Positions 60,991 through 63,929 of a stretch of DNA of 64,000 nt are shown here, piece by piece (the stretch's first letter is position 1; each line of letters starts with the position of its first letter). The DNA is from an uncultured Acidobacteriota bacterium (GTDB taxonomy: Bacteria > Actinomycetota > Acidimicrobiia > Spongiisociales > ZC4RG35), in NCBI GenBank assembly GCA_963828465.1, contig CAWHEU010000022.1, positions 288,001 through 352,000 of the forward strand, given 5' to 3'. The position numbers and the translations under genes are program-made. The notes beneath the pieces are model-generated. The model saw nothing but the letters and a program-made list of their open reading frames with translations. It made no database searches and was not told the origin of the DNA.

Positions 60991-61568
60991 TCCCTCGTTT
61001 GGTCGTCGCCTCGAAGAACCCCGACAAGATCGCGGAAATAGAGGATGTGCTGAGGGAGGTGGGTCTTGCCGGTGAGATCGTCCGGGGCCTCGACTGGCCG
61101 GATGTCGAGGAGACAGGAGACACGCTCGAGGACAACGCCCTTCTGAAGGCGCGTGCTGTGGCGGAAGCCGTGGGGCTTCCCGCCTTGGCTGACGACACCG
61201 GCCTGGAGGTGGATTCCCTCGGCGGTCTCCCCGGGGTGAGGACGGCGCGATTCGCCGGACCGGGAGCGTCCTACCGGGACAATGTCGAGCTCCTGTTGGA
61301 GACGTTGGATGGAGTGGATGATCGACGGGCCCAGTTCCGGACAGCTGTGGCCCTGGTCATGCCTGACGGGTCTGAGATCGTGGTCGACGGTGCGCTCGAT
61401 GGGGTGATCACCGAAACCCCCAGGGGCGACGGCGGGTTCGGCTACGACCCCGTGTTCGAGGTCGAGGATCGGACATTGTCAGAGATGGGAGTGGCCCAGA
61501 AGAACACCCTGTCTCATCGGGCCCGGGCACTGCGAGCGTTGGCGGAGGCGCTCGGGATCGAGCGGTGA
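60987..61568 (+). CDS. rdgB: Non-canonical purine NTP pyrophosphatase
   Basis: [35 protein letters not shown]. Confidence 0.95.
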
Positions 61569-62825
61569 CGGAAGGGCCTCTCCGCGTCGTCATCGTCGGT
61601 GCTGGTTTTGCGGGTCTCAATGCTGCCAAGGCGCTGCGCCAGGAACCGGTTCACATCACGATCGTCGATCGGCGGAACTTCCATCTCTTCCAGCCGCTTC
61701 TCTATCAGGTGGCGGCGGCGGCGCTGAATCCGAGCGACATCGCCTATCCGATTCGCTCGATCTTCCGCCGACAGGAGAACGTCAGGAGCGTCCTCCTCGC
61801 CGAGGTCACGGGGATCGACCTCTCGGATAAGACCGTGAGCCTGGACGATGCCTCGGTCCTGCCCTACGACTATCTGATCCTCGCTACCGGGGCGACCCAT
61901 TCCTACTTCGGTCACGACGACTGGGAACAGATGGCACCCGGGCTGAAGACCCTCGAGGACGCGCTGCTTCTGCGGCAGCAGGATCCTGGCCGCTTTCGAA
62001 GAGGCAGAGCGCAACCCGGACGATGCCGATCGCCTGCTCACATTCGTCGTGGTCGGTGGCGGGCCGACCGGGGTGGAGTTGGCGGGGGCACTGATCGAGA
62101 TCGCAGTCCACTCACTGGGGAAGGAATTCGACGTGATCGACCCGACCCGGGCACGCGTTCTTCTGGTGGAGGGAGCGCCGCATGTGCTGCCCGTCTATCC
62201 GGAGGACCTTTCGGACAGCGCCCGACGTCAGTTGGAGACCCTCGGCGTGGAGGTGCTGACGGGAACCATGGTCAGCGAGATCGACGAAGGGGGAGTCACC
62301 CTCAGTGACGGCCGACGGATCGAGTCGGGACTGGTGCTGTGGGCCGCCGGTGTCCAGGCATCGAAGCTTGGGGACATGCTCGGGGTGGAGACGGACAGAA
62401 CCGGTCGGGTGCCGGTCGAGGGCGATATGTCGGTCCCGGGGCACCGAGAGGTGTTCGTCGTCGGTGACCTCGCCACGGTTCCAGGTGTCCCTGGTGTCGC
62501 CCCAGCGGCGATGCAGATGGGCCGGCACGCCGGTCGCATGATCGAGGCCGACCTTCGGATGCGATCGAGGTTCCCATTCCACTATCGGAACAAAGGCGCC
62601 CTCGCCACCATCGGGCGGGCGAGGGCGGTGGCGGATTTCGGTCAGGTCAGGTTCGGCGGTTTCCTGGCTTGGCTGGCGTGGCTGGCCATCCACATCTTCT
62701 ATCTGATCGGCTTCCGCAACCGGGTCCTCGTGCTGATCTCGTGGGCCTGGAGCTATCTCACCTTCCGCCGCGGAGCGCGGATCATCACCGGAGTGCCACG
62801 ACTGCCGGAAAAGGGCGAGCCGTGA
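61565..62825 (+). CDS. ndh: Type II NADH dehydrogenase family; frameshift near 61980
   Basis: VGAGFAG, FQPLLYQVA, APGLKTLEDA, VGGGPTGVELAG, WAAGV, KGALATIGR, HIFYLIGFRNR. Confidence 0.9.
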
Positions 62826-62913
62826 TGGTGCGGGTGAGAGGATTTGAACCTCCACGACCTTTCGGTCACAGGGACCTAAACCCTGCGCGTCTGCCAAGTT
62901 TCGCCACACCCGC
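62826..62913 (-). tRNA. tRNA-Leu(TAG)
   Basis: GCGGGTG/CACCCGC acceptor, CAGGG-TTTAGGT-CCCTG anticodon arm, long variable arm, encoded CCA. Confidence 0.96.
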
Positions 62914-62938: not shown

Positions 62939-62967
62939 ACAAGCCCTCGGTCTGACCGAGGGCTTGT
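62939..62967. terminator. Hairpin downstream of tRNA-Lys
   Basis: ACAAGCCCTCGGTC-T-GACCGAGGGCTTGT, perfect 14-bp inverted repeat. Confidence 0.7.
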
Positions 62968-62969
62968 TG

Positions 62970-63043
62970 TAGGCCGCGTGGGACTCGAACCCACAACACC
63001 CGAGTTAAGAGCCCGGTGCTCTAGCCAATTGAGCTAGCGGCCC
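62970..63043 (-). tRNA. tRNA-Lys(CTT)
   Basis: GGGCCGC/GCGGCCT acceptor, CCGGG-CTCTTAA-CTCGG anticodon arm, GGTTCGAGTCC T-arm; CCA not encoded. Confidence 0.96.
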
Positions 63044-63054
63044 GCGCTGGAAGG

Positions 63055-63771
63055 TTAATACCGGTAGTCGGGAAGGCTCAGACGGTCTGCTACGACCTCG
63101 ATCCAAACGATCGTTCGCTGCCATGCATCGGAGCACCGCCGCATCTTGACGGTGCAAACACCGTGTCGGAGATGGTTTTTTCGGTGCCCGGTGCCTTTCG
63201 GCTTGATGAAGGTCTTGTGGAAGTTGGCATTGTTCAGACCAGTCTCTGCGCGCCAATAGGACCTCGCTGCGCCTTCATCATTGCCCTCGTGCAGATGGAG
63301 TTGGAGCGAGAAGTCGGCAGCGGGATCCAGATAGGTCCGGATCCAGTAAATGAACAGACGCAGGGCGCGGGGATCGGCGTTCGCCAGCGTGAGATGATTT
63401 CGGGTCTTCGCACCTTCGGCCCAATAGAGGACAGCACCTGCAACCCAGAGAGGGTCTGTCATGAGGTCAGGAGTCTGAGAAAGTGCAGCGACACGCACGA
63501 GCGAGATCTCGGTGCGTCGTTTCCTGTTCGTATCCCGCGGTATGCCCTCCCGCGACCCGGACCGCGCCCGGATCGCTTGCATCTTTTCCTCCGACAACCT
63601 CACATCGCGACACCAAGTCGCAAGGGTCGATTTTGGCACCGGGATCAGGTCCATGATCTCGCCATAGGAGAGCCCGAGACGCCGTAGGTCCTTCCCCAGC
63701 TCGGACCGCTCCCATCTCGACAGTCCGTCCCACCCCTCGATCCGGGCCCGAAATTGGATCCCCAGCTCCAT
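63055..63771 (-). CDS. HTH + LAGLIDADG-like domain protein (putative homing-endonuclease relative)
   Basis: N-terminal LRRLGLSYGEI...IPVPKSTLATWC; central AGAVLYWAEGAK...LTLANADPRALRLF; basic C-terminal part. Confidence 0.7.
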   Translation of the reverse strand: MELGIQFRARIEGWDGLSRWERSELGKDLRRLGLSYGEIMDLIPVPKSTLATWCRDVRLSEEKMQAIRARSGSREGIPRDTNRKRRTEISLVRVAALSQTPDLMTDPLWVAGAVLYWAEGAKTRNHLTLANADPRALRLFIYWIRTYLDPAADFSLQLHLHEGNDEGAARSYWRAETGLNNANFHKTFIKPKGTGHRKNHLRHGVCTVKMRRCSDAWQRTIVWIEVVADRLSLPDYRY

Positions 63772-63777
63772 AGTTCG

Positions 63778-63799
63778 ACCATATGAGTGAGGTGGGACA
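63778..63799 (-). promoter_or_regulatory. RecA-NDp/PafBC-like leaderless promoter
   Basis: Minus strand TGTCCC-ACCTCACTCA-TATGGT-CGAACT-ATG. Confidence 0.5.
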
Positions 63800-63831
63800 G
63801 GAATCGGGACGCAAGTACGCTGACCCGATCA

Positions 63832-63905
63832 CGGGCTGTGGCGCAGCTTGGTAGCGCGCTTGCTTTGGGAGCAAGAGGCCGTCGGTTCGAATCCGACCAG
63901 CCCGA
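63832..63905 (+). tRNA. tRNA-Pro(TGG)
   Basis: CGGGCTG/CAGCCCG acceptor, CTTGC-TTTGGGA-GCAAG anticodon arm, GGTTCGAATCC. Confidence 0.96.
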
Positions 63906-63929
63906 CCGGGGCTTTACAATGACGTGTCC

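Follow-up and report, generated by a model that had tools for sequence, protein, structure and literature searches.

The locus

We describe a gene that lies between two divergently oriented tRNA genes in a 64,000-nucleotide (nt) stretch of the genome of an uncultured bacterium of the Acidimicrobiia (positions 288,001 to 352,000 of contig CAWHEU010000022.1; this whole stretch is hereafter called the window). The open reading frame (ORF; 63055..63771, minus strand, ATG start, stop codon included) encodes 238 amino acids (aa) that comprise a helix-turn-helix (HTH) region and a single LAGLIDADG-type domain. The most fitting description of its family is a new lineage, so far without annotation, of homing-like endonuclease genes of the LAGLIDADG type that reside in tRNA leaders, and the hypervariability of the linked tRNA is new. 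Nuclease activity and homing are putative.

Eleven nt (63044..63054, minus strand) separate the stop codon of the ORF from the 5' end of tRNA-Lys(CTT) (62969..63043, minus strand), which is followed on the same strand by tRNA-Leu(TAG) (62826..62913). On the other side, the start codon is 60 nt from tRNA-Pro(TGG) (63832..63907, plus strand), the first gene of a divergent Pro-Gly-Arg-His cluster. These coordinates agree with the first-pass annotation, made from the letters of the window, which had placed a 238-aa ORF between divergent tRNA-Lys and tRNA-Pro genes at 11 nt from the former. The two peptide strings that it quoted, AGAVLYWAEG (residues 111-120) and LTLANADPRALRLF (residues 127-140), are both present in the ORF. 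It had also reported no intron, intein, integrase or terminal repeat; we likewise identified no integrase, intron or intein at the ORF locus, and a repeat search there detected neither direct repeats nor an inverted repeat that flanks the ORF.

The intergenic region 63772..63831 presumably holds the promoters of both transcription units, and is 100% identical to that of the closest relative, G012a. A scan of the window locus for sigma-70 consensus promoters and terminators found none. The ORF is present as a single copy in the window genome, and tRNA-Lys(CTT) is the sole copy of its kind among the 49 tRNAs. Two sequencing runs of DNA carry the ORF almost unaltered. Two RNA runs cover the tRNA parts of the locus and leave the ORF uncovered, and hence have no bearing on its expression.

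The predicted protein

At E<=1e-3 the ORF has 866 homologues, mostly ~238 aa long and named 'hypothetical'; it also matches 3250 cluster representatives, of which 1237 are at E<=1e-10. Intact copies have ratios of nonsynonymous to synonymous substitution (dN/dS) of 0.09-0.28, with dS saturated. An AlphaFold2 model built with 57 relatives has a predicted local distance difference test score (pLDDT) of 94.2. Given these homologues, the dN/dS values and the pLDDT, the ORF is a real gene and not a chance frame.

The names given to members of the family include 'hypothetical', 'HTH domain-containing', 'terminase gpP N-terminus-related', 'resolvase' and 'transposase', and the ESM Atlas holds solely 'hypothetical' or HTH clusters. 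No source annotates any member as LAGLIDADG or homing endonuclease. A literature search found no description of the family or of a LAGLIDADG gene in a bacterial tRNA leader (supplements, which possibly hold annotations, were not covered). Single-protein sequence searches of Pfam, NCBIfam and the PDB returned nothing significant, and the window protein had no match in PHROGs or PADLOC.

The model consists of a helical N-terminal part and a C-terminal alpha/beta domain. The N-terminal helices (residues 5-12, 19-31, 36-42, 47-53 and 61-71) mark an HTH region at residues ~5-71 (63559..63759, minus strand). Structural searches with VIA-align matched this region to KorB (Z 6.2), Spo0J (Z 5.7) and the HTH of SETMAR (Z 4.2), with three HTH proteins covering residues 2-58. 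Relatives have significant Pfam HTH_23 matches at the N-terminus; for the window protein itself the Pfam HTH match, MerR-DNA-bind, is non-significant (E 0.054). The N-terminal HTH read from the letters in the first-pass annotation is thus borne out by the relatives and by the fold matches.

The LAGLIDADG-type domain covers residues ~101-235 (63067..63471, minus strand). Its first helix in the model, 107-119, terminates in E119-G120 within the motif LYWAEGAK (residues 115-122; 63406..63429, minus strand), and E119 and K122 are the putative catalytic residues. E119, G120 and K122 are invariant in 57 diverse relatives, and all 118 proteins read from loci contain EG.K. In an exhaustive VIA-align search, LAGLIDADG proteins occupied 11 of the top 16 rows (Z 4.7-7.2, 73-90 aligned residues). 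The matches include the endonuclease domain of the TliVMA intein (Z 7.2), WhiA (Z 6.5 and 5.4), I-DmoI (Z 6.2), E-DreI (Z 5.9) and I-Vdi141I (Z 5.7), as well as the single-motif enzymes I-CeuI (Z 5.1), I-MsoI (Z 4.7) and I-CreI (Z 4.2).

A profile of the 57 relatives had seven matches in the PDB at E<=0.01, all of them to I-DmoI (E 1.3e-3 to 2.5e-3). With the same profile, the chain of the I-DmoI E117A mutant scores E 0.12, versus 0.002. In the profile alignment, LYWAEGxK with the strand and helix that come after it is matched to the second motif of I-DmoI, LYVAEGDK (E117, K120); the invariant K122, which is aligned to K120, corresponds to the basic-residue feature of LAGLIDADG enzymes. E117 and K120 are the catalytic residues of I-DmoI, and WhiA lacks equivalents, according to the part of PMC3384342 that deals with them. 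The first-pass annotation had suggested a LAGLIDADG-like fold, and the predicted assignment, which the structural matches also favour, rests decisively on the family-profile sequence link to I-DmoI.

Residues 96-238 are predicted to form a homodimer, with a score of 0.77 compared with 0.00 for the best of three controls. The mark used was reached by 20 of 30 proteins solved as one-chain pairs and by 1 of 23 solved as single chains. Three runs share >=95% of contacts, the partner pLDDT is >=84, and the predicted interface is the motif helix, 104-119, packed against itself. This result may reflect likeness to solved LAGLIDADG dimers and may not be independent evidence. Natural double-length relatives of 396-576 aa (P0188, P0197, P0205, P0216 and others) have two LAGLIDADG-type domains per chain and so resemble monomeric two-domain homing endonucleases.

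Linkage to tRNA genes

A degenerate DNA pattern for the motif retrieved at least 120 loci from named genomes, and 118 of 120 hold a true homologue as judged with a hidden Markov model. The loci listed come from Streptomyces, Micromonospora, many Patescibacteria lineages, Chloroflexota, Armatimonadota, Gemmatimonadota, Omnitrophota and others. A tRNA is located within 100 nt in 110 of the 118 homologue loci among the matches listed, which upholds the tRNA association put forward in the first-pass annotation. It is directly downstream on the same strand in 97 of these 118 loci and on the upstream side in 11; the 8 loci without a tRNA within 100 nt are mostly fragments or lie at locus edges. ORFs of at least 200 aa in the window genome served as a control, and 16 of these 5279 have a same-strand tRNA at the equivalent position.

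A second set, which includes the loci of relatives of the window genome, consists of 118 distinct near-full-length proteins. In 107 of them a same-strand tRNA lies between -80 and +150 nt downstream, and the tRNAs belong to 17 species by anticodon. In a tree of 87 proteins (here and below, all trees are FastTree only) clades largely correspond to tRNA identity, with 17 label changes for 17 tRNA states, a count made after dropping 31 of 41 Streptomycetaceae rows and without a shuffle control. Small Patescibacteria genomes have two or three paralogues, each of which adjoins a different tRNA. Among relatives of the window genome, the gene or its remnant is found between tRNA-Lys(CTT) and the Pro-Gly-Arg-His cluster, or beside one of these at a contig end, in 27 of 28 loci.

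The distance from stop codon to tRNA in relatives ranges from about -75 to about +50 nt. In many of them the ORF reads into the tRNA and has its stop codon inside it, and overlaps of 7, 12-13, 19-20 and 35 nt recur. Such overlapping ORFs occur among loci L032-L148, for example L086, L100, L122 and L123. Processing by RNase P would detach the stop codon from the message in these copies.

Hypervariability of the adjacent tRNA

By textbook account, tRNA genes evolve slowly and vertically. Within the window's genus, tRNA-Lys(CTT) has a mean pairwise identity of 0.819 (minimum 0.69), and 17 of 19 sequences are distinct. The corresponding means are 0.947 for tRNA-Leu, 0.941 for tRNA-Pro, 0.995 for tRNA-Gly, 0.979 for tRNA-Arg and 0.957 for tRNA-His. 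The first-pass annotation had treated the tRNA beside the gene as a conserved flank; it is instead the most variable tRNA of the cluster. The cloverleaf is kept, as 8 of 20 base pairs have double-sided changes and each pair of the anticodon stem occurs in 3-4 pair types (this count was made without genome G018). The tRNA-Pro on the other side of the gene is much more uniform than tRNA-Lys, yet has three anticodon-stem variants. In a small sample of related genomes from six families of the order that yielded no copy of the gene, the ranking is reversed: 0.874 for tRNA-Lys and 0.804 for tRNA-Leu.

In Streptomyces, the gene lies beside tRNA-Gln(TTG) at one syntenic locus, where the downstream flank is common to 47 of 48 loci and the upstream flank to 40 of 48. 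This tRNA falls into 13 types with a mean identity of 0.726 (minimum 0.53), and its flanks are 73-88% identical. Compensatory changes affect 14 of 21 base pairs. With respect to a downstream-flank tree, the tRNA-Gln types are randomly placed (30 changes; shuffled mean 31.0, minimum 28), and on the protein tree they are partly clustered (20 changes versus 26.5 shuffled). In both of these distant lineages the tRNA beside the gene is less well conserved than the protein-coding DNA around it, and it is shuffled between chromosomes that are nearly identical.

Replaced blocks at the tRNA

Near-identical Streptomyces backgrounds bear different blocks made up of ORF and tRNA. In the pairs L098/L114 and L044/L047 the flanks are 90-100% identical, and identity falls to 33-80% from ~600 nt upstream of the tRNA, in mid-ORF, to the tRNA 3' end. 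The minimum is at the ORF 3' end and the tRNA 5' half, and both ORFs of each pair are intact.

A similar block separates the window from its closest relative. In a sliding-window comparison of the window locus (L001) with that of G012a (L020), identity is 40-77% inside the block and 80-100% outside it, and the flanks, five other tRNAs included, are 94-100% identical. The hyper-divergent block (62998..63637) runs from the anticodon stem of tRNA-Lys through ORF codons ~45-238, and over this whole stretch of the ORF, stop codon included, identity stays at 40-77%. Within tRNA-Lys, replacement is complete in the anticodon stem and variable loop, and everything else is identical save for one D-loop base, so that an island of identity, made up of the D-arm and 5' acceptor (63017-63043), lies within the block. 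As the ORF of G012a is decayed, this pair is weaker evidence than the Streptomyces pairs.

We considered three other explanations. Pseudogene decay as a source of the divergent block is ruled out by the Streptomyces pairs, in which both ORFs are intact. Relaxed constraint through redundancy is ruled out by the single tRNA-Lys(CTT) of the window genome. An integrative element with a tRNA attachment site is contradicted by the absence of an integrase, by flanks that are conserved right after the tRNA 3' end, and by variation across the whole tRNA and not just its 3' part.

The sharply bounded blocks may result from a break made by the nuclease. We lean, though only slightly, towards the explanation that the family consists of free-standing homing-type LAGLIDADG endonucleases in tRNA leaders that drive allele replacement at the tRNA. 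The main interpretation of the first-pass annotation, an intron-less homing-type element, is thereby supported. To judge from the anatomy of the locus, the gene would be transcribed with the tRNA and RNase P would free the tRNA, which would keep the cost to the host small. The protein is predicted to dimerise via the LAGLIDADG helix, pairing two E119/K122 centres, and the dimer may cut the tRNA gene, or the leader-tRNA junction, of alleles unlike its own neighbour. Repair from the nuclease-bearing copy would then co-convert the nuclease gene together with part or all of the tRNA. Such co-conversion would give rise to the bounded replaced blocks, the random assortment of tRNA alleles and the rapid compensatory change in stems that we observe, and the tRNA may also be under selection to escape cutting. 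Copies that have become fixed decay and are deleted, leaving the remnants and empty sites described below.

Some of the same observations would fit a role at the RNA level, in which the protein binds or cuts the adjacent tRNA or its precursor, either as a maturase-like factor or as a nuclease to which the linked tRNA is immune, and in which co-evolution drives the variation. Some LAGLIDADG proteins act as RNA maturases, and such maturases receive a mention in the relevant part of PMC2647301. The gene and the tRNA probably share a transcript, the stop codon is inside the tRNA in many relatives, and the changes in the tRNA are compensatory and keep the cloverleaf. However, known LAGLIDADG catalytic centres cut DNA, and such cleavage accords with both the E/K centre retained here and the predicted dimer, which resembles that of I-CreI. 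Recognition of RNA alone also does not predict blocks of DNA that reach hundreds of nt into the ORF. An RNA-level role is, in our judgement, improbable.

Other nucleases and phage in the same niche

Genes of other types occupy the corresponding position in some relatives. In G023, a member of the window's genus, an ORF for an HNH endonuclease of 152 aa (L158, 1761-2390; phrog_2255, E 2.7e-29) is found 7 nt upstream of an inverted tRNA-Pro(TGG), and a 3' fragment of the former plus-strand tRNA-Pro remains just before tRNA-Gly. G020 has a decayed version of this arrangement (L166, 1741-2321). The HNH family, which is also in a tRNA-leader position, seems to have brought or duplicated its tRNA. 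G036 carries a gene of 300 aa whose product combines an AbiEi_4 HTH with a nuclease-like DUF559/REase_MTES_1575 domain (L181, 2081-2983). On the strand of tRNA-Lys(CTT) and 92 nt upstream of it, this gene is at the site filled elsewhere by the LAGLIDADG-type gene. Together with the present family, the HNH gene of G023 and the DUF559-type gene of G036 indicate that at least three nuclease folds use the position just 5' of a tRNA. In G031 (L183), an ABC-ATPase-like ORF fills the tRNA-Lys gap.

The LAGLIDADG-type family also occurs in phage, including jumbo phage. Two IMG/VR contigs, of 60 kb and 260 kb, carry a family member whose end falls within tRNA-Ser(TGA), in an array of 17 tRNAs in 14 kb. 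These members (L200, 4689-5547; L201, 13244-14141) have neighbours that include DprA-like and RF-1-domain genes. The IMG/VR family member had no match in PHROGs.

The presence of three unrelated nuclease-type genes at the same kind of site would be expected if the leader were simply a safe and well-expressed place for small nuclease genes. The variability of the tRNA would then come from tRNA-cutting toxins or phage anticodon nucleases, and recombination would be incidental. The loose coupling between nuclease-domain type and tRNA type (20 changes; shuffled mean 27.7) and the three anticodon-stem variants of tRNA-Pro, across the gene from tRNA-Lys, are consistent with such hitch-hiking. Against it, strong acceleration within the cluster is confined to the tRNA next to the gene, and the same effect is seen again in a distant genus, Streptomyces, at another tRNA. 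The identity minimum at the ORF 3' end and tRNA 5' half is, moreover, as expected of breaks made there. We therefore give hitch-hiking little credence and continue to favour homing-type allele replacement.

Distribution, decay and inheritance

Among high-quality Acidimicrobiia, 48 of 201 genomes and 35 of 113 genera have a match, as do 17 of the 24 other genomes of the window's genus. Of 101 Streptomyces genomes, 70 have a match (62 near full length and 8 as fragments only) and 31 have none. Four unpublished genomes (G018, G038, G027 and G302) enter several counts as single rows, and the conclusions are independent of them.

Damaged copies are frequent in the window's genus. They include frameshifted copies in G015 and on contig 19 of G012, stop-bearing copies in G009 and on contig 16 of G012, an internally deleted copy in G007, and short remnants in G004, G006 and G008. 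In other families of the order, G025 and G035 have an empty spacer between tRNA-Pro and tRNA-Lys, of 90 nt and 99 nt, respectively. Between the same tRNAs there are thus occupied, decayed and empty alleles, a presence/absence polymorphism, and the empty-site alleles that the first-pass annotation had proposed to look for in relatives do exist.

Several observations weigh against the homing reading. Some concern the pattern of inheritance. In all five of the 'no match' Streptomyces genomes examined, the syntenic locus is kept, and these are deletion derivatives and not virgin sites; pieces of the gene, such as ~330 nt of the 5' end in G052 and 38 nt of the 3' end in G064, remain in some of these loci, which marks them as deletion alleles. 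The gene tree of the window's order is roughly congruent with taxonomy. In it the genus forms a single clade (support 93), joined by one metagenome-assembled genome of unstated genus, L136, and the nearest relative of the window protein is that of G018. In 27 of 28 loci the gene keeps its place between tRNA-Lys and tRNA-Pro. Given this order-level congruence and the fixed position, much of the local pattern can be put down to vertical descent over long periods, combined with loss. A comparison of gene tree and species tree, proposed in the first-pass annotation as a check on mobility, therefore gives a divided answer: the types of the adjacent tRNA are random on the flank tree in Streptomyces, and the gene tree in the window's order is largely vertical. 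The purifying selection on intact copies is likewise unexpected for a purely selfish gene that is fixed and is not recurrently transferred.

Others concern the pairing of nuclease and tRNA. The tree of the nuclease domain is only loosely coupled to tRNA type (20 changes, shuffled mean 27.7), and it tracks tRNA type no better than does the N-terminal part (20 versus 19 changes, with the same shuffled mean). Near-identical nuclease domains are found beside different tRNA types (L052/L056), so a simple pairing of one nuclease with one immune tRNA fails. In addition, the insertion point is ~40 nt from the anticodon stem, a distance that leaves the escape of the resident tRNA from cutting without explanation.

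The remainder concern the fold and its occurrence in mobile elements. VIA Z scores of at most 7.2 are middling and insufficient alone, as the tool warns that Z<8 can reflect a common arrangement. Foldseek against the PDB returned nothing at E<=1e-3; its top rows are OmpA-like domains at E ~0.03, with I-DmoI at E ~0.2-0.3. No Pfam LAGLIDADG model reached threshold, and the window protein had no LAGLIDADG or WhiA match (E<=10 for LAGLIDADG); LAGLIDADG_3 was detected in 2 of 10 relatives, only at E 0.027-0.082. The topology of the model as assigned by DSSP has an extra helix, 166-177, between the second and third strands, and only one strand between helices 1 and 2 of the C-terminal domain. Finally, a tblastn search of phage and plasmid collections with the window protein gave no match.

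Purifying selection on intact copies, largely vertical descent in the order and a fixed position are what one might expect of a domesticated, WhiA-like DNA-binding regulator, an alternative also raised in the first-pass annotation. Such a protein would act by binding, without cutting, at the divergent promoter region or the tRNA gene, and would thereby tune transcription of the tRNA operon and of its own gene. It would have an HTH domain, as seen here, and would be well placed beside a 60-nt divergent promoter region between two tRNA operons; WhiA is also among the best structural matches (Z 6.5). Nevertheless, the catalytic E and K, which are lost in WhiA as far as the account in PMC3384342 goes, are invariant here. 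The gene is patchy even within genera, frequently decays, and is partnered with 17 tRNA species across clades, and a regulator would leave the hypervariable tRNA and the replaced blocks unaccounted for. We consequently regard this alternative as unlikely.

The same purifying selection, together with the shuffling of alleles at the tRNA, could also reflect a recombination initiator that benefits the host. Its targeted breaks would swap or diversify an essential tRNA allele, for example against tRNA-directed attack, in a manner comparable to that of yeast HO, a LAGLIDADG enzyme adopted by its host according to the passage on it in PMC3384342. Frequent loss and decay speak against this, a host benefit of tRNA diversity is without support, and no silent donor cassettes were seen near the locus. 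We consider a host-beneficial initiator very unlikely, and homing-type replacement of tRNA alleles is the explanation carried into the comparisons that follow.

Comparison with known systems

The closest working analogue is SegB of phage T4, for which the same mechanism has been described as that proposed here. SegB is a free-standing GIY-YIG nuclease in a tRNA cluster, its site includes the conserved T-psi-C motif of a tRNA gene, and in crosses it spreads itself and the neighbouring tRNA genes, as far as these points are set out in the relevant portion of PMC2330249. Like SegB, the present family has a member in a phage tRNA array. The GIY-YIG fold is unrelated, and SegB is known from T-even phages, whereas the present family is mainly chromosomal and occurs in many bacterial phyla. 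The family further differs from SegB in its place in the leader of one specific tRNA and in its association with a tRNA that is hypervariable.

The present family shares with I-DmoI and other LAGLIDADG homing endonucleases a motif helix ending in E-G-x-K, and also has these enzymes as its best structural matches, a predicted symmetric dimer formed via the motif helix, and tandem fused forms. I-DmoI and its kin are archaeal or organellar and are encoded in introns or inteins, whereas the present genes are free-standing in bacterial chromosomes. In contrast to I-DmoI, the protein has one domain that follows an N-terminal HTH, has a predicted extra helix between strands, and falls below the Pfam LAGLIDADG threshold. 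I-CreI, I-MsoI and I-CeuI resemble it in having one LAGLIDADG domain per chain; the two-fold dimer is predicted in our case, and the similarity scores are low. The genes for these three enzymes lie within group I introns of organellar rRNA genes, and the enzymes are not known to carry an HTH.

WhiA (DUF199) also combines LAGLIDADG with an HTH and is a good structural match (Z 6.5 and 5.4). It consists of two LAGLIDADG domains followed by a C-terminal HTH, and has lost the catalytic residues. The present family differs in having one domain after an N-terminal HTH, in retaining E119 and K122, in its patchy distribution, and in having no Pfam WhiA match. The suggestion that the window protein is a WhiA-like regulator of the tRNA locus is disfavoured by the invariance of E and K, which WhiA does not have.

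A wider proposition, which we find plausible yet would sooner doubt than accept, is that the family comprises active, tRNA-gene-directed homing endonucleases that constitute a cross-phylum gene drive. The leader and RNase P would serve these genes much as self-splicing serves intron-borne genes, and palindromic tRNA stem-loops would be the natural target of a symmetric dimer. Cutting and repair would make single-copy essential tRNA genes, of 17 species and in jumbo-phage arrays, the fastest-changing and most exchanged sequences in their neighbourhood, and a selfish nuclease would be a major unrecognised driver of tRNA evolution. If this is true, RNA leaders that are removed by processing are a new niche for selfish genes. 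Proteins now named 'hypothetical' or 'HTH domain', in their thousands in Streptomyces, Acidimicrobiia, Patescibacteria and other groups, would be explained, and the family would provide a natural library of compact nucleases with diverse and readable targets. tRNA sequences and the regions that flank tRNAs may, in that case, mislead phylogeny and strain typing.

Other features of the locus

In G030 (L013, 2255-2331), an inverted tRNA-Pro precedes the gene on its own strand. In G028 (L006, 319-1968) the gap between tRNA-Lys and tRNA-Pro measures 1.65 kb, which exceeds the length of the gene. A contig from run X1, a soil metagenome, joins 63044 to 63908 on opposite strands, that is, the base neighbouring the 5' end of tRNA-Lys to the base that follows tRNA-Pro. 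This contig represents a G023-like arrangement, with inverted tRNA-Pro, from a related organism.

The spacer between tRNA-Lys and tRNA-Leu contains a perfect 14-nt inverted repeat with a 1-nt loop (window 62939-62967). G012a has a hairpin at the same place in which the loop and the stem base differ. Beyond tRNA-Leu, a gene resembling type II NADH dehydrogenase (window 61565-62825) appears to be split into two overlapping frames, 61565-62308 and 62049-62825, by either a frameshift or an assembly error.

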